From the NCBI GenBank assembly GCA_934675625.1, contig CAKURH010000002.1, forward strand, positions 5,471 through 69,470: 64,000 bases of DNA, written 5' to 3'. Position numbers and translations under genes: made by a program. The notes beneath the pieces are model-generated. The model saw only the letters and a program-made list of their open reading frames with translations. It was not told where the DNA came from and ran no database searches. Source of the DNA: an uncultured Kiritimatiellota bacterium (GTDB taxonomy: Bacteria > Verrucomicrobiota > Kiritimatiellia > RFP12 > UBA1067). Shown in pieces: positions 5,277 through 15,165 of the stretch; position 1 is the stretch's first letter, and every line of letters starts with the position of its first letter.

Positions 5277-6014
5277 CTAGGCGAGTTCGCGCGAACGCTG
5301 CGCGGCGGCCGCGAGCGTCTTCGCGACGGTCTTCTTGAACGACGGCGTCGCGAGGAACTTCATGCCCGCCGCCGTCGTGCCGCCCTTCGTGCAGACGCCG
5401 TCGATGAACGCCCTGAGCGGCATCTGCGACTCGCGCAGGAACTTCGCCGTGCCGTACATCGTCTGCTCCGCGAGGAGCCGCGCGACGGACGGCTTCAATC
5501 CCAGCGCCACGCCGCCCTCGACCATCGCCTCCTCCATGTAGGCGAAGTAGGCGGGGCCCGACCCGGAGAGCGCCGTCACCGCGTCAAAGTCCTTCTCCTT
5601 CAGGACGACCGTCGCGCCCGCCCCGCCGAGAATCCGCTCGACCTCGGCGAGGTGCTTCTTCGGCGCACGCGGCCCCGGACAGATCGCGCACATGCCCGCG
5701 CCCGCCCGCAGCGCGAGGTTCGGCATGACGCGGATGAGGTTCACCTTCGCGCCCAGCGTCTGCCGCAGCCGCTTGAGCGTCTTGCCCGCGACGATCGAGA
5801 CGACCGTCTGCCGCGCCGTCAGGAACGGCTTCACCTCCGCCGCGACGGCATCCACGTCCTGCGGACGCACCGCGAGGAAGATGAGCTCGCACGTCTTGGC
5901 GATCTCGACATTGCGGTTGTCGTCAACCGAGGAGAGAATGACGGACGACGGATCGTCCATCGCCGAGAGAATGCCCTGGGCCATCTTGCCCGCACCGAAG
6001 AATCCGATTTTCAT
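5277..6014 (-). CDS. proC: pyrroline-5-carboxylate reductase
   Basis: 245 aa. Rossmann start MKIGFFGAGKMAQ. C-terminal P5CR signature CTKGGTTAAG. Confidence 0.85.
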   Translation of the reverse strand: MKIGFFGAGKMAQGILSAMDDPSSVILSSVDDNRNVEIAKTCELIFLAVRPQDVDAVAAEVKPFLTARQTVVSIVAGKTLKRLRQTLGAKVNLIRVMPNLALRAGAGMCAICPGPRAPKKHLAEVERILGGAGATVVLKEKDFDAVTALSGSGPAYFAYMEEAMVEGGVALGLKPSVARLLAEQTMYGTAKFLRESQMPLRAFIDGVCTKGGTTAAGMKFLATPSFKKTVAKTLAAAAQRSRELA

Positions 6015-6020
6015 GTGGGT

Positions 6021-6050
6021 ATTGTCTCATAATCTCCGTCCGCGCGTCAA
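6021..6050 (-). promoter_or_regulatory. sigma70-type promoter TTGACG-18-(TGa)GACAAT, leaderless proC
   Basis: Reverse complement gives TTGACG (6050-6045) and TGAGACAAT (6029-6021). Only 6 nt separate the -10 from the proC ATG at 6014. Confidence 0.5.
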
Positions 6051-6061
6051 GCCCGGCAACG

Positions 6062-6091
6062 AAAAAAAGGACGTCCCCGAAGGGACGCCCC
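6062..6091 (-). terminator. intrinsic terminator downstream of groEL
   Basis: On the minus strand: GGGGCGTCCC-TTCG-GGGACGTCC followed by TTTTTTT. Lies 30 nt after the groEL stop and before the proC promoter. Confidence 0.8.
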
Positions 6092-6120
6092 TTTTCTGTT
6101 CCGTCATCGACGGATGCGGC

Positions 6121-8123
<2,003 letters not shown>

Positions 8124-8156
8124 GTTTTGTTTTTTCCTTTTTTTTGGGTCGTTTGA

Positions 8157-8219
8157 TGTTTCTAGATGCTCTAGTCGCCCTAGTCTCCCTAGAACCTCTA
8201 GGGAGACTCGAACGGCTAG
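8157..8219 (-). repeat. 7 x 9-nt phased tandem repeat CTAGNNNNN in the dnaK-groES spacer
   Basis: Minus-strand read: CTAGCCGTT CGAGTCTCC CTAGAGGTT CTAGGGAGA CTAGGGCGA CTAGAGCAT CTAGAAACA. Contains the perfect inverted repeat TCTCCCTAGA-ggt-TCTAGGGAGA. Confidence 0.9.
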
Positions 8220-8228
8220 CCGTGAGAC

Positions 8229-10157
8229 TTACTTCATCGTGAAGTCGGCGTCGACGACGTCATCGCCGTTCTTCTTGCCGTCGTCCTTCGGCGGCTCGCT
8301 GTTCGGCGGCGGCGTGCCCGCGCCCGGATTCGCGCCGGCCGCGCCCTGCGCGGCCTGCGCGCTGGCATACATCTCCTGCGCGACGGGCTCCATCGCCTTC
8401 ATGAGCGCCTCCTGCTTCGCCTTGATGTCGGCGATCGGGGCCGGCGGCTGCTTCGCGAGCAGGTCCTTGAGCTCCTTGAGCGCGGCCTCGACCGGCGCCT
8501 TCTTGTCGGCGGCGATCTTGTCGCCCGCGTCCTTCAGCGTCTTCTCGACCTGGAAGGCGAGCCCGTCGGCCTTGTTGCGGTCCTCGACCTCGGCGTGGCG
8601 CTTCTCGTCCTCGGCCGCGTGGGCCTCGGCGTCCTTGCGCATCTTCTCGATCTCCTCCTTCGAGAGACCGCCCGCCGCCGTAATCGTGATCTTCTGCTCC
8701 TTCTGGGTGCCGAGATCCTTCGCCGAGACGTTGAGGATGCCGTTCGCGTCGATGTCGAACGTGACCTCGATCTGCGGGACGCCACGCGGCGCCGGCGGAA
8801 TGCCGTCCAGGTTGAAGTTGCCGAGCGCCTTGTTGTCGCGCGCCATCTTGCGGTCACCCTGGAAGATCGCAATCGTCACGGCCGGCTGGTTGTCCGCCGC
8901 CGTCGAGAAGACCTGCGACTTCTTCGTCGGGATCGTCGTGTTGCGCTCGATGAGCGGGGTCAACACGCCGCCGAGCGTCTCGATGCCGAGCGTCAGCGGG
9001 GTCACGTCGAGCAGGAGCACGTCCTTCACTTCGCCCTTCAGGATGCCGCCCTGAATGGCCGCGCCCATCGCGACGACCTCGTCCGGGTTGACGCCCTTGT
9101 GCGGCTCCTTGTTGAAGAGGCTCTTCGCCTTCTCCTGAATGAGCGGCATGCGCGTCTGGCCACCGACGAGGACGACCTCGTCGACCGTCGAGAGCTCCGC
9201 GTCCGCCATGCACTTGCGGCACGGCTCGGCGGTGCGGTTTACGAGATCCATCGTCAGCGTCTCGAGTTTCGAGCGCGTCAGCGTCGCCGTCAGGTGCTTC
9301 GGCCCCGTCGCGTCCGCCGTGATGAACGGCAGGTTGATGTCGTAGGTCGTCGCGCTCGACAGGGCGCATTTCGCCTTCTCGGCCTCTTCCTTCAGGCGCT
9401 GGAGGGCCATCATGTCGTTGCCGAGGTCGATGCCCTGCTGGGCCTTGAAGTCCTCGATCATCCACTTCATGATCGCCTGGTCGAGGTCGTCGCCGCCGAG
9501 GTGCGTGTCGCCGTTCGTGGCCTTCACCTCGAAGACGCCGTCGCCGATGTCGAGGATCGAGATGTCGAACGTGCCGCCGCCGAAGTCGTAGACCGCGATC
9601 TTCTCGTTTTTCTTCTTGTCGAGGCCATAGGCGAGCGAGGCCGCCGTCGGCTCGTTCACGATGCGCTTGACGTCAAGGCCCGCGATCTTGCCCGCGTCCT
9701 TCGTCGCCTGACGCTGCTGGTCGTTGAAGTACGCCGGAACCGTGATGACGGCCTCCGTGATCTTCTCGCCGAGAAACGCCTCCGCGTCTTCCTTCAGCTT
9801 GCGGAGGACCATCGCGGAAATCTCCTGCGCCGTGTAGATCTTGTCGTTCACCTTCACGGCCGCATCGCCGTTCGGCGCCGCGACGACCTCGTAAGGCACC
9901 ATCTTGATCTCGTCCGTCATCTCGCTGAAGCGACGGCCGATGAAGCGCTTGATGGAGTAGATCGTCGACTTCGGGTTCGTGACCGCCTGGCGCTTCGCCG
10001 CCTGGCCGACCAGGATCTCGCCCGTCTTCGTGAACGCCACGATCGACGGCGTCGTCCGCGCGCCCTCCTTGTTCGGGATGACCGTCGCCTCGCCGCCTTC
10101 CATCACGGCCATGCAGCTGTTCGTCGTGCCAAGGTCAATACCAAGTACTTTTGCCAT
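8229..10157 (-). CDS. dnaK: molecular chaperone DnaK (Hsp70)
   Basis: 642 aa. [26 protein letters not shown]-type motif ([13 protein letters not shown]), and a full substrate-binding domain and lid. Confidence 0.97.
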
Positions 10158-10227
10158 AGTCTTTTCTCAACTTTCTTTCGCCCACCACGGGCGACGCCTC
10201 GTTTCTTGCAAACTCCATGCCAAACAT

Positions 10228-10314
10228 GGGGACAGACCCCAGCCCTTGGGGACATATCCTCGAAACATGGGGACAGACCCCCGGAATTGCGGCCAAATCG
10301 TGGGGACAGACCCC
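10228..10314 (-). repeat. four direct copies of the 13-nt mini-palindrome GGGGTCTGTCCCC (one degenerate) upstream of dnaK
   Basis: Plus-strand GGGGACAGACCCC at 10228-10240, 10269-10281 and 10302-10314, with a degenerate GGGGACATATCC at 10248-10259. On the coding strand each reads GGGGTCTGTCCCCA(T/C)G(T/A)TT. Confidence 0.9.
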
Positions 10315-10316
10315 TT

Positions 10317-10363
10317 GAAAAACAGAAAGTGTGACATTCTGTCGCGACAGAATGTCACACTTT
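10317..10363 (-). terminator. intrinsic terminator (38-bp perfect palindrome plus T-tract) after the 243-aa hypothetical gene; an operator role is not excluded
   Basis: AAAGTGTGACATTCTGTCG/CGACAGAATGTCACACTTT (10326-10363) is a perfect palindrome. On the minus strand it is followed by CTGTTTTTC. It lies 36 nt after the stop at 10399 and about 170 nt upstream of dnaK. Confidence 0.65.
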
Positions 10364-10398
10364 TAGCGCGTGGCACACTACGGTGCCCACCCGTGTCC

Positions 10399-11130
10399 CT
10401 ATTTCATGAAATCGCTGCGCCGACGGCGCACCTTGGCGAGGAAGCTGCTGACCGCCCCGCCCTTTTTCGTCTTCGGCCCAAACGTCAAGGTCTGCTGGGG
10501 CTGTTTCGGCTTCGGCGCGGCGAGACGCGCGCGCAGGTCGTTCACGCTGTCGATGCCGAGCTTCGCGGCGCAGGGCGTGCCGGCCTCCAAGCCCGCCAGC
10601 TCCGGAAAGTCGTCCAGCGGATAGAGGAGCCCGCAGTTGAAATGGTAGATGCTGCGGTTGACGATCGGGAGCAGGATGCGCACCTTCACGCCGAAGCCGA
10701 ACTTGTAGGCGCGCACCTTCACGCGCGCGGCCTCGCGGTTGTGGTAGCGCGCCTCGTCAGGCATCGTGGCGTCCTTCGAGACGAAGAGCGCGTCCATGTC
10801 CTCCTCCAGATAGTAGCGCGGAATGCTCATCTTCCACCGGCGGCAGTCCGGCCCCTGCACCATCACCAGCGCATACCGCTCGTTCGCCTTCGGAATCTCC
10901 TCGTAGGCGACCACGCGCACGATGCACGCCAGCGGCAGGTCGAGCGGCATGATCTCGCCCTCGCCGCGCCGCAGCCGGTCAAGATACGCAATCGCCGCGA
11001 GGTCTTCCGGCGTCTTCTCCGGCTTCTCAGGCCGCTCGGGCCGCTCGGACTTTGGAGTCCGTTTGGCCCGCTTGGGCCTCTTGGGCTTTTCAAAATCTTT
11101 CTGCGCGTCGTTTTCGTCGTTGTCGTTCAT
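10399..11130 (-). CDS. hypothetical protein (243 aa) with highly charged N- and C-termini
   Basis: ATG start preceded by GGAAAGG. N-terminus MNDNDENDAQKDFEKPKRPKRAKRTPKSERPERPEKPEKTPED. Basic C-terminus KTKKGGAVSSFLAKVRRRRSDFMK. Codon usage matches the genome. No family recognised. Confidence 0.6.
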   Translation of the reverse strand: MNDNDENDAQKDFEKPKRPKRAKRTPKSERPERPEKPEKTPEDLAAIAYLDRLRRGEGEIMPLDLPLACIVRVVAYEEIPKANERYALVMVQGPDCRRWKMSIPRYYLEEDMDALFVSKDATMPDEARYHNREAARVKVRAYKFGFGVKVRILLPIVNRSIYHFNCGLLYPLDDFPELAGLEAGTPCAAKLGIDSVNDLRARLAAPKPKQPQQTLTFGPKTKKGGAVSSFLAKVRRRRSDFMK

Positions 11131-11166
11131 GGTCTGCCTTTCCAGTCAATCGCCTCGAAACGAGGG

Positions 11167-11245
11167 TGCACCTGGAGGGACTCGAACCCCCACGCTTGCG
11201 CAGTGGAACCTAAATCCACCGTGTCTGCCATTCCACCACAGGTGC
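11167..11245 (-). tRNA. tRNA-Leu (anticodon UAG)
   Basis: Minus-strand read: GCACCTG acceptor stem, anticodon arm GTGGA-TTTAGGT-TCCAC (anticodon TAG), long variable arm TGCGCAAGCGTG (class II), T-arm GGGGG-TTCGAGT-CCCTC, then CAGGTGC-A. CCA is not encoded. Confidence 0.85.
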
Positions 11246-13275: not shown

Positions 13276-14487
13276 TTACTTCCGCAGCTTGTCGCGGTGC
13301 GAGAAGAAGATGCGCGTCTTGTTCGCGAAGGACTGCGCCTCGGGGTAGTTCGCGGTGGAGGCGAGCTTCTGGAACTCCTCCAGCGCGGCCTTCTGCCGGC
13401 GGTCGAGGTTCGCGGGCACCTCGAAGACGACACGCGCGTCGAGATCGCCAGCAGCACCGCCGCGCAGCGACGGCACGCCCTTGCCGCGCAGGCGAAAGAC
13501 CTTGCCGTTCGGCGTCCCCGCCGGAATCTTGAGCTGTGCCTCGCCCTCCGGCGTCGGCACGGCAATCGTGCCGCCCAGCGCCGCCGTCACGGGCGAGACG
13601 GGCACGTCCACGAAAAGATGCTGGCCCTCGCGCTCGAAGATGTCGCTGTCGCGCACGCCGATGAGGACGTAGAGATCGCCGGGACGCCCGCCGCGCAGGC
13701 CGCCCGCCCCCTTGCCCGCAAGCCGCAGCCGCGAGCCGCTGTCGACGCCCGCCGGAATCTTCAGCGCGATGTGCTGAGGCTGCGTGACGCGCCCCGAACC
13801 CCGGCACCGACGGCACGGCTTCTCGATGACCGTTCCCTCGCCGCCGCACGTCGGACACGTCTGCTGGATGCGCAGGAAGCCGCCGCCGCCCATGACGACG
13901 CCGTGGCCGCCGCACGTCTTGCACGTCACGCGCCGCGCGCCGTCGGCCGCGCCCGTGCCGCGGCAGTCGGGACACTGTGCCGGAAGGTCAAGGTCAAGCG
14001 TCCGCTCGCTGCCGAACAGCGCCTCGTCGAAGTCGATGTCGAGGCGGAAGGTCATGTCGTCGCCGTCCTGCGGCCCGTTCGGGTCGGCACGGTAGGCGCG
14101 CCCGCCCCCGCCGCCGCCGAAGAGATCCTCGAAGCCGCCGAAACCGCCGCGCGCGCTCCGCGCGCCGCCGCGACCGCCGAAGATGTCGCCGAACATGGAG
14201 AAGATGTCGTCCATGTTCATGCCGCCCGCGCCGAACCCGCCGGCCCCGCCCGCGCCGTTCGCGAACGCCTGATGCCCGAACTGGTCGTAGCGCTGGCGCT
14301 TCTCGGCGTCATGCAGCACGTCGTACGCCTCGGCCGCCTCCTTGAACTTCTCCTCGGCCGCCTTGTCGCCCGGATTGCGATCCGGGTGGTACTTCATCGC
14401 GAGCTTGCGGTAGGCGGACTTGATCTCGTCCGCCGTCGCCGTCTTGGACACGCCCAAGACCTCGTAGTAATCACGTTTCTCTGCCAT
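13276..14487 (-). CDS. dnaJ: molecular chaperone DnaJ
   Basis: J-domain [36 protein letters not shown], a G/F-rich region, and four CxxCxGxG zinc-finger repeats. Confidence 0.95.
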
Positions 14488-14490
14488 GTT

Positions 14491-15165
14491 TTAGGAAGCT
14501 TTCCCCGACGACACGACGACCTGCGCGGCGCGCAGCACCTTGTCCTTCAGCATCCAGCCCTTCTTCGACTCGATCGAGACCTTGCCCTCGGGAATCTCCG
14601 CGTGCGGCAGATGGGCGATCGCCTCCATCCGTTCCGTGTCGAGATCGAGCCCAACGGAATCGAACGGCTCCGCGCCATGATCCTTCAACGACTTCAGGAG
14701 CGTGTCGTGCACCATCTGCACGCCCTTCACGAAGGGGTCGTCGGCCTTGTCCTTCGCGTTCGCGAGCGCGAGCTGGAGGTTGTCGACCGCCGGCAGGACG
14801 TCCTTCAGGATGTCGGCCTCGGCGTAGCGGTACGTGTCCTCACGATCACGCGCCGCGCGCTTCTTGTAGTTGTCGAAGTCGGCGAGCGTCAGAGCGTAGA
14901 GCGTCTTCCAGTCGGGCTCCTTCGGCGTTTCGGCCTTGGGCGGCTCGGCAGCAGACGGCTCGGCTTTCGGCTCGGTTTCGGGTTCGGCGGGCGAGGCGGA
15001 CGCGGACGCAGAAGACGCGCAGGACGGTTCGCCGTCTTCAGTTTTCTTTTCAGAGGGCTTCGCCGTCTCGGCTGTTTCGCCCGAAGTCTCCGCTGTCGTT
15101 TCAGCCTTCTGGGCCTCAGCGGCTTTCGCCGCCTCGGCCGTTTCCTCTTTCTTCTCTTCGCTCAT
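14491..15165 (-). CDS. grpE: nucleotide exchange factor GrpE (with about 85-aa acidic low-complexity N-terminal extension)
   Basis: Core FDNYKKRAARDRED...VLPAVDNLQLAL...GVQMVHDTLLKSLKDHG is typical GrpE. Only 3 nt separate it from dnaJ. Confidence 0.9.
   Translation of the reverse strand: MSEEKKEETAEAAKAAEAQKAETTAETSGETAETAKPSEKKTEDGEPSCASSASASASPAEPETEPKAEPSAAEPPKAETPKEPDWKTLYALTLADFDNYKKRAARDREDTYRYAEADILKDVLPAVDNLQLALANAKDKADDPFVKGVQMVHDTLLKSLKDHGAEPFDSVGLDLDTERMEAIAHLPHAEIPEGKVSIESKKGWMLKDKVLRAAQVVVSSGKAS

Follow-up and report, generated by a model that had tools for sequence, protein, structure and literature searches.

A phased CTAG repeat array with a predicted stem-loop between dnaK and groES in an uncultured Kiritimatiellota bacterium

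What does a run of short, evenly phased CTAG repeats do between two chaperone genes? The locus that raises this question lies in a 64,000-nt stretch of DNA from an uncultured Kiritimatiellota bacterium, and the whole of this stretch is referred to here as the window. Three chaperone genes are located on its minus strand, namely, dnaK (8229-10157; 642 aa; Pfam HSP70, E 2e-260; TAA stop at 8231-8229), groES (7836-8123; 95 aa; Pfam Cpn10, E 3e-33; ATG at 8123-8121) and groEL (6121-7755; 544 aa; Pfam Cpn60_TCP1, E 2e-80). The minus-strand read after the dnaK TAA matches the preliminary description of this DNA exactly, with seven 9-nt units at 8219-8157: CTAGCCGTT CGAGTCTCC CTAGAGGTT CTAGGGAGA CTAGGGCGA CTAGAGCAT CTAGAAACA. 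CTAG heads six of the seven units, as described, and the seventh head is CGAG. The units run head-to-tail and constitute the direct-repeat family D1.

The 9-nt CTAG array between dnaK and groES is real and non-random. CTAG occurs 17 times in the window, compared with approximately 50 occurrences under a Markov expectation and approximately 198 under a mononucleotide expectation. Eleven of these 17 sites are inside the dnaK-groES and groES-groEL spacers, where they are spaced by 9 or 18 nt only. The pattern CTAG-N5-CTAG-N5-CTAG matched four times in the window, each time in one of the two chaperone spacers, and was absent from 100 dinucleotide shuffles. Lag-9 autocorrelation was compared over the 19 spacers in the window with lengths of 40-300 nt: it reached 0.50-0.51 in the two chaperone spacers and did not exceed 0.38 elsewhere, the latter value being that of the nominally periodic spacer 2405-2604. 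The groES-groEL spacer holds a sister array (7765-7818, minus strand), which reads CTAGAAGTC CTAGAATCA CTAGAACTT CTGGAACGG CTAGAACAA CTAGAAAGG. Units 1-4 of the sister array form a weaker hairpin, in which a CTGG unit is paired by G.U (z -2.25 with CTAGs fixed), and its last unit holds an SD-like AAAGG. CTAGAA arrays homologous to this sister, with 5-8 units, were found in L020, L021 and L023. The sole phased CTAG-like site of the window beyond the two chaperone spacers is a degenerate two-unit remnant (aaCTCGaac aaCTAGaac; 43421-43439, minus strand; TRF period 9) in the spacer between rpoB and rpoC, which were identified by Pfam.

Three other contigs (L012, L013 and L015) carry the array, and all have it unchanged. 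L012 is identical to the window throughout, and L013 and L015 differ from it in other parts of the operon and have their centre in common. The comparison of the window with L013 revealed 0 changes in 185 spacer nucleotides, versus approximately 20 events in the adjoining 915 coding nucleotides. L015 was dropped as independent evidence of conservation, being a recombinant or chimeric contig with the central segment of L013.

The preliminary description placed a perfect hairpin with a 10-bp stem inside the array. The hairpin and its GGT loop (8194-8196) are present, and the stem proved longer: the perfect core comprises 12 bp (8197-8208 with 8182-8193, AGTCTCCCTAGA / TCTAGGGAGACT) and lies within 23-nt arms (8197-8219 and 8171-8193) that are 83% complementary and give approximately 21 bp. 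The stem-loop as a whole (8171-8219, minus strand), which was recovered by MFE folding and as the inverted repeats I1 and I2, begins 10 nt past the dnaK stop and is formed by the first six units. An alternative register pairs 8162-8183 with 8198-8219. The MFE of the dnaK-groES spacer was -34.4 kcal/mol, with z -4.3 relative to shuffles and z -3.2 when every CTAG was kept fixed in the shuffles. No U-tract follows the stem, the 3' flank of which reads AGGGCGACUAGAGC, and the window's own hairpin is without sequence variants. In a G.U strand-asymmetry test, sense and antisense strands folded equally well (16 vs 22, p 0.22), and G.U usage thus gives no evidence for an RNA hairpin over a symmetric DNA. 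Array-only leaders, the sense strand of which is A+C-rich, fold far worse as sense than as antisense.

The last units of the array run into an A/C-rich and weakly structured groES leader (8124-8156, minus strand), in which an SD-like AAAGGA is located at 8140-8135, 11 nt before the ATG. This leader is mostly unpaired in the MFE and centroid folds, save one marginal 2-bp helix, and the AAAGGA and AUG of groES lie outside substantial predicted helices in both. A leader of the form ..aaaggaaaaaac..ATG recurs in relatives. A distance of 48 nt separates the end of the hairpin from the groES ATG downstream, and an RNA thermometer of the ROSE or fourU type was rejected on these grounds.

The gene layout suggests that dnaK, groES and groEL are transcribed as one polycistronic mRNA, with dnaK first and groEL last. 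A site scan found no sigma-70-like promoter and no hairpin-plus-U terminator in the dnaK-groES or groES-groEL spacer, and the earlier idea that dnaK and groESL share one transcript fits the locus because both spacers are free of such sites. Canonical terminators with U-tracts are present after groEL and at the gene upstream of dnaK (~10326-10363). The intrinsic terminator that closes the operon (6062-6096, minus strand; GC hairpin and U-tract) reads aaaaggggcgtcccttcggggacgtccttttttt, the spacer containing it (6015-6120) folds with z -3.3, and the terminator scan near groEL flagged its complementary-strand counterpart only, at 6072-6087. This terminator is an example of what genuine terminators of this organism look like; the -10 boxes of the organism are TATAAT-like. 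The 8171-8219 stem was rejected as an intrinsic terminator, given that it has no U-tract and that the spacer received no terminator-like call. The direct adjacency of dnaK and groESL, which had been regarded as an unusual gene order, is no oddity of this genome, since dnaK is upstream of groES in the close relatives too: this order was observed in every close relative examined but L021, the scaffold of which has an assembly gap, and in 46 of 80 distant relatives.

CTAG at a 9-nt phase had also been proposed as the selected feature. For arrays of this type the proposal holds in that fixed-phase CTAG is conserved: the core is kept in 50 of 53 units, with 1.86-2.0 bits per core position and 0.2-0.65 bits at the other five positions, in a set of arrays located through GroES and not through any CTAG pattern. 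It does not hold at the level of the locus, where neither CTAG nor the 9-nt period is conserved at the dnaK-groES-groEL spacers across relatives. Relatives with identical or 97-99% identical GroES have TCGA-, CTAC-, GGAAGAA-, GTTTGGAA- or CTCAAGTC-type arrays, or none, and the array periods in the chaperone spacers of relatives are 7-10 nt. An absence of 9-nt periodicity from relatives with the same gene order had been named as evidence against the proposal; 9-nt CTAG is kept in L021, L023, L026 and L027, many relatives have other periods, and some have none. The recurrent cores are palindromic tetramers, namely, CTAG and TCGA in this clade and TTAA in distant relatives, and non-palindromic units occur too.

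The layout is shared more widely than the sequence. A hairpin just after the stop, followed by an A/C-rich and G-poor leader, recurs across the clade in most arrays and is built from unrelated sequences. Nearly all array- or hairpin-bearing spacers of relatives fold with z -3 to -7.7 irrespective of unit sequence, stems of 30-50 bp are found among them, and one alignable relative hairpin has double (compensatory) changes at two stem pairs. Copy number differs among samples L244-L251, the spacers of which range from 92 to 172 nt between identical flanks; it also differs between L014 and L016-L019 and among L020, L021 and L023. The element is dispensable, because some lineages (L158-L163, L003 and L022) are without any array or hairpin; bare spacers of 18-64 nt occur in some lineages. 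In distant relatives, dnaK is followed by a GC hairpin that lacks a U-tract and then by a G-poor leader, and 14 of 68 groES-groEL leaders are periodic, versus 0.7 expected. The groES-groEL spacer of L165 forms a stem of approximately 30 bp from (GCTAGTS)n / (GACTAGC)n heptads, and the gene of a 23S-rRNA-intervening-sequence protein (PF05635, E 2e-40) lies inside this stem.

Gut and rumen Bacteroidales have abundant CTAG-N5 arrays in the untranslated spacers of their ordinary operons (genome hits: ~100/120 Bacteroidales, plus gut PVC bacteria). Their units number from 4 to more than 20 at a spacing of 8-9 nt, and they are positioned past stop codons, within operons and ahead of terminators, not at promoters. 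The array-bearing operons of Bacteroidales include the butyrate pathway, an ABC transporter, methylmalonyl-CoA mutase and era-der. In consensus the unit reads TCTAGA-AAA, a tandem palindrome. The arrays tend to be symmetric under reverse complementation, and the sense strand is A-rich in most of them (44 vs 15). Higher-order repeats of 18 and 27 nt are found within arrays; exact 5-mer copies amount to 13% at lag 2 vs 5% at lag 1, a difference that is not significant per array (16 vs 13). In the orthologous crotonase / 3-hydroxyacyl-CoA dehydrogenase spacers of two Bacteroidales species (L039 and L117), the CTAG phase is kept and the 5-mers and unit counts differ. Many other 6-9-nt arrays flank the CTAG arrays in Bacteroidales spacers, and in L055 an ORF lies between inverted array-containing repeats. 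CTAG frequency outside arrays is 0.73 per kb. Pairing beyond that of CTAG itself is absent from three of the four CTAGAA-type groES-groEL arrays and from approximately three quarters of the Bacteroidales arrays, and therefore a hairpin cannot explain the whole class. When a viral collection was scanned for the pattern, almost all matches were ordinary 3-codon coding repeats. A full-text literature search found no description of phased CTAG arrays, which appear to be previously undescribed.

The array is best read as a lineage-specific tandem repeat with a palindromic CTAG core and five variable bases. The explanation that we favour, at a confidence somewhat short of even, is a palindromic-core tandem repeat built by slippage, which provides a stem-loop between cistrons and a leader with little structure within a dnaK-groES-groEL polycistron. 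The stem-loop in the transcript would then be an intercistronic processing or stability element. It may be a double-stranded target of RNase III, like those of rRNA intervening sequences and phage T7 early mRNA; a stem of approximately 20 bp or more within a transcript, as expected of an intervening-sequence-like RNase III site, is present here with its ~21 bp. Alternatively, it may be a barrier to 3' exonucleases, like REP hairpins. Under either option the message levels of dnaK and groESL could differ, and the units further downstream would serve to hold the initiation region of groES open. Neighbouring palindromic cores 3-6 nt apart could pair as a minimal hairpin and favour replication slippage; arrays would expand and contract quickly because of this pairing. 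Units would keep the core because only intact cores go on being copied, because pairing is selected, or for both reasons. On the slippage reading, the 9-nt CTAG phase would mainly reflect the way in which the element arises. Slippage leaves unexplained the near-perfect CTAG (50/53) in genomes that otherwise avoid this tetramer.

Another explanation, which we consider unlikely, is that a trans-acting factor recognises CTAG, or CUAG in RNA, at a constant interval of 8-9 nt, the array being its multivalent platform and the hairpin secondary. The reader could be a small single-stranded-RNA-binding protein, for example, a Bacteroidota RRM-1 protein coating the spacer, or a dimeric DNA-binding protein that polymerises on tandem palindromic boxes in the manner of MetJ (8-bp met boxes). 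The near-invariant core with five varying bases is the pattern that a short recognition motif leaves, the L039 and L117 spacers hold their phase despite different 5-mers and unit counts, and the distribution over Bacteroidales and gut PVC bacteria suggests a shared reader. The avoidance of CTAG outside arrays, evident from its frequency there and from its scarcity in the window, and the tandem palindrome of the consensus point the same way. Binding to a UAG repeat of 8-nt period has been observed for RbpB of B. thetaiotaomicron, which shifts three tandem GUAGGAUA units with a Kd of 5.1 uM and does not shift a C/U-rich control (bioRxiv 10.1101/2021.04.27.441718). However, close relatives swap in wholly different units, a change that a sequence-specific reader could accommodate only by co-varying, and a single-stranded-RNA motif does not need reverse-complement symmetry. 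The positions after stops, in operons and before terminators are unlike those of MetJ or TrpR operators, which are sited at promoters; no RRM gene was found in a search of the window and the related loci, and the literature search found no link between RRM-1 proteins and CUAG arrays. A wider version seems comparably doubtful: (CTAG-N5)n and its TCGA/TTAA cousins would be an unrecognised class of cis-elements in operon spacers, read by a dedicated factor shared by gut Bacteroidales and gut PVC bacteria, and this factor would set the relative expression of neighbouring cistrons with unit number as a rapidly evolvable dial. Candidates for a dedicated factor are an RNA-binding protein, such as one of the RRM-1 family, and a CTAG-specific DNA-binding or DNA-modifying protein.

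The array may instead be a functionless, self-propagating minisatellite that slips wherever untranslated DNA tolerates it, with the hairpin and CTAG conservation as by-products, and we regard this as rather unlikely. The head-to-tail units are those of a VNTR or minisatellite, copy number is hypervariable, unit families are fully replaced between lineages sharing the same GroES, and the bare spacers and the flanking 6-9-nt arrays of Bacteroidales are in keeping with it. The arrays also have no coding role, because TAG falls evenly into the three frames set by the upstream ORF (24/23/23); backup stop codons were rejected on the same count. Against this reading, a lag-9 autocorrelation of 0.5 is reached by the two chaperone spacers only. 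Most lineages of the clade have arrays or hairpins in precisely this pair of spacers, and the distant groES-groEL leaders are periodic far above expectation, which points to selection or a very local hot spot. The compensatory changes in one relative's hairpin and the unchanged spacer between the window and L013 also count against it. A spacer of 100-350 nt that served no purpose should be lost through the deletion bias of bacterial genomes. Small mobile insertions (MITE-like, REPIN-like or IVS-like cassettes) that landed in the chaperone spacers are improbable, although several observations recall them: presence/absence polymorphism at identical GroES (L001/L002/L006 vs L003-L005), a purine-rich hairpin family that occupies the dnaK-groES spacer of one lineage and the groES-groEL spacer of another, the protein gene inside the array-built stem of L165, and the flanked ORF of L055. 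Nevertheless, the 64-kb window has no further copy of the CTAG array except the 2-unit remnant, array-independent terminal inverted repeats, target-site duplications and a nearby transposase were not found, and it is improbable that many unrelated families all targeted the same two spacers. Heat-shock transcriptional control, through a repressor operator or an internal heat-inducible groESL promoter, is suggested by the position of the array in a chaperone operon. CtsR operators in Firmicutes are tandem direct repeats, and the core of the TrpR operator or half-site is CTAG. This reading is largely refuted by context and we hold it to be very improbable. The window gave 0 matches to the CIRCE / HrcA operator (TTAGCACTC-N9-GAGTGCTAA, up to 3 mismatches) and 0 to the HAIR / HspR operator (CTTGAGT-N7-ACTCAAG, up to 2 mismatches), and the spacer is without a promoter-like site in an organism with TATAAT-like boxes. 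The same array type occurs in non-stress operons of Bacteroidales, where arrays do not adjoin chaperone genes except in L029, and unrelated sequences take the place of the array in relatives. The array is not a heat-shock signal, and a heat-shock regulon element was rejected.

Other known classes were also considered and rejected. Rfam models gave no hit at the gathering threshold, and at E up to 10 gave chance hits only (e.g. miRNA-precursor models), far below threshold. REP or REPIN elements were rejected for want of dispersed copies in the 64 kb, and a MITE for want of a flanking duplication or additional copies in the window. A tandem operator of the MetJ or TrpR type would share the tandem palindromic cores, but no promoter-like site is present and the arrays lie within operons. 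In a TRAP- or HutP-type target the UAG triplets would be 2-4 nt apart; here they are 6 nt apart, with no terminator/antiterminator alternative. The Bacteroidota -7 box is TAnnTTTG, and three array units equal the -33/-7 spacing. The T-rich strand of the consensus unit, TAGATTTT, is near this box, but promoter mimicry seems unlikely: the sense strand is A-rich in most arrays, and the boxes of this organism are of the TATAAT kind. Neither pairing to the 3' tail of 16S rRNA nor Rho rut sites, with YC at 9-nt intervals, would explain an invariant CTAG or the G-rich 5-mers of this array.

If functional, the arrays would be a general and easily tuned device that sets the relative output of genes inside operons. 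Their hosts are very abundant gut bacteria (Prevotella, Bacteroidaceae and Muribaculaceae) and poorly known gut PVC lineages. To our knowledge, Bacteroidota are without Hfq, ProQ and CsrA, and little of their post-transcriptional control has been mapped. A regular expression is enough to recover the arrays, and the question of function is directly testable because they occur in cultured strains, among them the array-rich Prevotella jejuni DSM 26989, Prevotellamassilia timonensis Marseille-P2831, Prevotella sp. tc2-28 and P. conceptionensis. Even if functionless, they are a clear natural case of hairpin-driven minisatellite dynamics in bacteria, are usable as strain-typing markers and are a likely hazard for short-read assembly. 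For this window, the tempting reading as a new heat-shock operator has been removed as wrong.

Several known systems resemble these arrays in part. The (U/G)AG targets of TRAP and HutP likewise present repeated UAG triplets with variable spacers in mRNA leaders, and the binding of the Bacteroides RRM-1 protein RbpB to its three-unit UAG repeat of 8-nt period in vitro is similar. TRAP and HutP targets have a spacing of 5-7 nt and a defined repeat number tied to an antiterminator, whereas CTAG arrays are spaced by 8-9 nt, range from 4 units to more than 20, show reverse-complement symmetry and have no attenuator. MetJ met-box arrays and tandem TrpR sites share tandem palindromic boxes, an 8-9-bp spacing and a CTAG core; those operators are located at promoters with full-length boxes conserved, whereas CTAG arrays are in operons and 3' UTRs with variable spacers, and we know of no cognate protein for them. 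REP/BIME and other intercistronic palindromes (the E. coli malE-malF REP, ERIC and Correia) stabilise upstream mRNA or are cut by RNase III or RNase E, and the outcome of REPs is differential expression within an operon. The likeness lies in transcribed, untranslated spacers just past stops within one operon and in stable stem-loops without a U-tract. REPs, however, are imperfect palindromes of 30-40 nt that share a conserved GTAG, lie scattered in hundreds of copies and owe their mobility to RAYT transposases; the array consists of tandem 9-nt units, the palindromic core of which is 4 nt long, and it is not scattered over the 64-kb window. The RNase III stems of rRNA intervening sequences and phage T7 early mRNA are likewise approximately 20 bp or more and belong to long, highly expressed transcripts, and the likeness to rRNA intervening sequences extends to the L165 protein gene enclosed by an array-built stem in the homologous groES-groEL spacer. 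The host here is a chaperone mRNA, the stem consists of short tandem repeats, and cleavage is putative. Bacterial VNTRs and minisatellites share short head-to-tail units, copy-number variation among strains (here, in relatives) and higher-order duplications. Unlike VNTRs, the CTAG arrays keep a near-invariant core tetramer while the rest drifts, are confined to untranslated spacers and often form two complementary arms.

On the minus strand, the genes of the locus were ordered as grpE (14491-15165), dnaJ (13276-14487), a 654-aa ORF, tRNA-Leu(UAG) (11165-11245), a 243-aa ORF, dnaK (8229-10157), groES (7836-8123) and groEL (6121-7755). Neither ORF had a Pfam match, and the 243-aa ORF near dnaK had an N-terminus rich in K/E/P. 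The tRNA, a decoder of CUA codons, thus sits inside the chaperone cluster, with dnaJ on one side and dnaK on the other. Terminators composed of a hairpin and a U-tract were found for groEL (about 6062-6096) and for the gene upstream of dnaK (10326-10363), and the -10 boxes of this organism resemble TATAAT. Neither chaperone spacer contained a promoter-like or terminator-like site; we infer that dnaK, groES and groEL form a single transcription unit, so the single dnaK-groESL transcript considered in the preliminary description is likely.

The 105-nt dnaK-groES spacer (8124-8228) held seven units of 9 nt at 8219-8157, six starting with CTAG and one with CGAG, exactly as first read. The window has a G+C content of 66.5% and strongly avoids CTAG (17 occurrences in 64 kb, where a Markov model predicts ~50), and 11 of these 17 were located in the dnaK-groES and groES-groEL spacers at spacings of 9 or 18 nt only. 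The pattern CTAG-N5-CTAG-N5-CTAG (N5, five variable bases) had four matches in the window, all in the chaperone spacers, and none in 100 shuffles; lag-9 autocorrelation was 0.50-0.51 in the two chaperone spacers and at most 0.38 in every other spacer of the window. The embedded perfect hairpin was present and larger than originally reported, with a 12-bp stem (AGTCTCCCTAGA / TCTAGGGAGACT) and a GGT loop within arms of 23 nt each (8171-8193 and 8197-8219); a second pairing is possible in a shifted register. The spacer folded with a z of -4.3 against dinucleotide shuffles and of -3.2 against shuffles with all CTAGs fixed, indicating that the variable 5-mers of both arms are complementary as well. 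The observation of array and hairpin is therefore solid.

Several other features of the window were recorded. The dnaK-groES spacer equals 35 codons with no in-frame stop from the dnaK TAA to the groES ATG, and readthrough of the TAA would join DnaK to GroES in one fusion; this stop-free frame, with a chance of about 1 in 5, is probably a coincidence. In the rpoB-rpoC spacer (43396-43464), two degenerate units (aaCTCGaac aaCTAGaac) remain of an array of this type, and they include one of the six window CTAGs that lie elsewhere than in the chaperone spacers. The 12-nt motif GGTCTGTCCCCA was dispersed, with eight occurrences against 0.45 expected: three exact copies and a diverged fourth upstream of dnaK (10227-10312), three 21-nt tandem copies and a fourth ~240 nt downstream within an aroK/aroB fusion ORF (26758-27065), where the tandem copies are an apparent in-frame insertion, and one copy inside a TonB-dependent receptor gene (50154-50165). 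The motif may represent a small mobile repeat or serve in regulation. The rough ORF call of this receptor (49225-51306, minus strand) overlaps an AdoCbl-II (cobalamin) riboswitch at its 5' end (51221-51293); the true start therefore probably lies beyond the riboswitch, in an ordinary arrangement.

The window GroES was found without any change on 197 contigs, chiefly in gut metagenomes of humans and animals; many GroES clusters were 92-99% identical to it. Genomic contexts were taken for nine near-identical clusters, and dnaK-groES-groEL was kept in all except the locus L021, where an assembly gap breaks the scaffold upstream of groES; genes beyond the operon varied. The spacer sequences of close relatives were very diverse. 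CTAG-N5 arrays with a 9-nt period occurred in the window and in L012/L013/L015, L020, L021, L023, L026 and L027. Units with a TCGA core appeared as ATTCGAYA / TAATCGAA / TTTTCGAA every 8 nt (L014-L019, L025, L149-L157, L252-L258), and TCGACRGCNN recurred every 10 nt (L244-L251). In other loci, CTACCAAA faced TTAGGTGG (8 nt; L001, L002, L006, L008), GGAAGAA faced CTTCTTCC (about 7 nt; L014-L019, L020, L024) and GTTTGGAAR faced CCCAAACCT (9 nt; L148, L150-L152, L156), and L026 and L027 had a CTCAAGTCN hairpin with a 9-nt period. Plain GC hairpins (L001-L006 and L008-L010, L022) and bare spacers of 18-64 nt with no array (L158-L163) showed no period. One repeat family could lie between dnaK and groES in one lineage and between groES and groEL in another. 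Unit number varied among samples with identical flanks; L014 and L016-L019 differed by single ATTCGACA units, and the groES-groEL spacers of L244-L251, (TCGACRGCNN)n, measured 92, 102, 132, 143, 152 or 172 nt, making this hypervariable VNTR usable as a strain marker. The CTAG phase, proposed earlier as the selected feature, was conserved within this array type, whereas the locus itself conserves neither CTAG nor the 9-nt period.

What persisted was the architecture. With CTAGs fixed, nearly all spacers with arrays or hairpins formed a strong stem right after the upstream stop (z -3 to -7.7), irrespective of unit sequence, and one alignable GC hairpin among relatives showed compensatory double changes at two pairs. 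The exceptions, with z about 0, were the CTAGAA-type groES-groEL arrays of L020, L021 and L023; the fourth array of that type, in the window, had a z of -2.25, and all four keep CTAGAAG as the first unit and a later CTTCTAG. Among 80 distant GroES relatives (57-89% identity, mostly environmental), dnaK lay upstream of groES in 46, so this gene order is a clade trait and not the oddity it had first seemed. Their dnaK-groES spacers typically comprised a GC hairpin with no U-tract and, after it, a leader poor in G and rich in A/C, and 14 of 68 groES-groEL leaders were significantly periodic against 0.7 expected, with heptads ACTTAAT/ACTTAAA reaching the ATG, CTCGAAA x4 and CCCTGAA as examples.

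Such arrays may arise by replication slippage. Palindromic tetramers are among the recurrent cores, with CTAG and TCGA seen in this clade and TTAA in distant relatives; units without a palindrome are present too, most of them as complementary arms of hairpins. With unit periods of 7-10 nt, neighbouring palindromic cores are able to pair in a 4-6-bp stem with a 3-6-nt loop, which is expected to stabilise slipped replication intermediates, thereby favouring gain or loss of unit pairs. Hypervariable copy number and the 18-nt ABAB higher-order repeats of many arrays are consistent with this model; exact 5-mer copies amounted to 13% at lag 2 against 5% at lag 1, though counted per array the excess was not significant (16 vs 13). 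Also in line with the model, unit positions 5 and 9 were complementary more often than expected (0.53 vs 0.36), and arrays therefore tend to reverse-complement symmetry. The model would explain why periods stay within this range, why cores are palindromic and why turnover is fast; alone, it gives no explanation for the retention of CTAG in 50 of 53 units (1.86-2.0 bits, against 0.2-0.65 bits at the remaining positions).

One genome per species was searched for four CTAGs spaced 9 nt apart, which returned at least 120 loci. Among the 120 listed, ~100 were gut or rumen Bacteroidales (Prevotella, Bacteroidaceae, Muribaculaceae, Paludibacteraceae), including the cultured Prevotella jejuni, P. conceptionensis, Prevotella sp. 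tc2-28 and Prevotellamassilia timonensis; a few were Kiritimatiellia, Victivallales and Verrucomicrobia MAGs, and those from other phyla were ordinary perfect tandem repeats. By rough gene calls on the matches listed, 102 of 136 arrays were intergenic, with median distances of 25 nt to the preceding stop and 36 nt to the following start; where both flanks were called, 65 were co-directional, 14 convergent and 7 divergent. The mRNA-sense consensus of these matches was CTAG-A-a-a-a-t, a TCTAGA palindrome each 9 nt, in genomes where CTAG is otherwise scarce (0.73 per kb). Flanking genes were ordinary operon partners, such as crotonase and 3-hydroxyacyl-CoA dehydrogenase, an ABC ATPase and two permeases, two methylmalonyl-CoA mutase subunits, era and der, or an MFS transporter and galactokinase. 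Orthologous crotonase spacers of two species (L039, L117) shared the CTAG phase and differed in 5-mers and unit counts; several arrays stood after a stop codon and before a canonical terminator, and about a quarter (18/75) paired beyond what CTAG alone provides. This spread identifies a general inhabitant of transcribed, untranslated spacers, not a heat-shock device. Full-text literature searching gave no account of phased CTAG arrays for either Bacteroidales or PVC bacteria. Base composition, the sources of the samples and the named PVC matches bearing similar arrays point to a gut PVC lineage, probably Kiritimatiellia, as the origin of the window.

Individual matches were also distinctive. 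A Bacteroidaceae MAG (L029:673-703) had a four-unit CTAG array in its own groES-groEL spacer, parallel to the window, and was the only listed Bacteroidales match adjoining chaperonin genes. Giant arrays of 400-450 nt, far above the typical 4-10 units, were present in an uncultured rumen bacterium (L085:3972-4411, 8-nt period) and in Verrucomicrobia UBA3783 (L109:5493-5900, 9-nt period). At L055:137-2011, a 424-aa ORF without a Pfam match lay between inverted copies of a CTAG array and ~40 nt of flank, so that a long hairpin, if formed, would hold the whole gene in its loop. Other 6-9-nt tandem arrays (units aggagtta, aatgcaca, actactca, ttaact) often shared the Bacteroidales spacers (L042, L052, L054, L062, L068, L129, L137); in L042 and L129 they flanked the CTAG array as complementary arms.

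The main alternative, a trans-acting reader of phased CTAG/CUAG, gives the best account of the invariant core and of the taxonomic distribution. RbpB, a single-RRM protein of B. thetaiotaomicron, offers a lead, since it binds UAG-repeat RNA in vitro, namely three tandem GUAGGAUA units (bioRxiv 10.1101/2021.04.27.441718); however, the motif reported from its CLIP-seq is a different, 41-nt sRNA one (PMC11697453), and the strand symmetry of the arrays ill suits a single-stranded-RNA motif. We consider such a reader less likely than the role of an intercistronic stem described below. A functionless minisatellite, with which the rapid turnover would agree, is about as likely as the reader, and two lines argue against pure neutrality: the hairpin-plus-leader recurs at exactly these two spacers despite complete sequence turnover, and the window and L013 differ by no substitution in 185 spacer nt against ~20 events in the 915 coding nt next to them (Poisson P about 0.02 if the coding rate applied). 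L015 was discarded as independent evidence of conservation: compared with the window (6000-10400), its outer dnaK and groEL are 10-14% divergent and its spacers identical, and it carries exactly the sequence of L013 over the central ~1.8 kb, a sign either that lineages recombined across the chaperone operon or that the metagenome assembly is chimeric. A heat-shock operator, which the position between chaperone genes might suggest, is unlikely, with no CIRCE or HAIR operator anywhere in the 64-kb window. Also rejected was a terminator or RNA thermometer identity, because the array hairpin lacks a U-tract and stops 48 nt short of the groES start codon, and neither the SD-like AAAGGA (8140-8135) nor the groES AUG lies in any substantial predicted helix. 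No Rfam family matched the array spacer, even at relaxed thresholds, and by their defining tests the element does not qualify as a REP, a MITE, a terminator, a thermometer or a known operator.

The most economical function would be the classical role of an intercistronic stem. The stem may serve as a processing or decay-barrier element, leaving dnaK and groESL message levels free to differ, with an open initiation region for groES downstream. The sense strand of the chaperone spacers is A+C-rich, and the sense RNA of array-only leaders folds much less well than the antisense, supporting the open-leader part; hairpins showed no sense bias in the same test (16 vs 22, p 0.22), which leaves RNA-level action by the stem putative. 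In one distant relative, L165 (GroES 76% identical), the groES-groEL spacer (989-1549) has a ~30-bp stem of (GCTAGTS)n / (GACTAGC)n heptads enclosing a 23S-rRNA-intervening-sequence protein gene (PF05635, E 2e-40). Intervening sequences of rRNA, excised by RNase III, have this layout, and L165 thus carries an IVS-like cassette in an mRNA spacer. For the array itself, a mobile IVS/MITE-like cassette is unlikely. The element itself behaves like a VNTR and would work like the known intercistronic palindromes.
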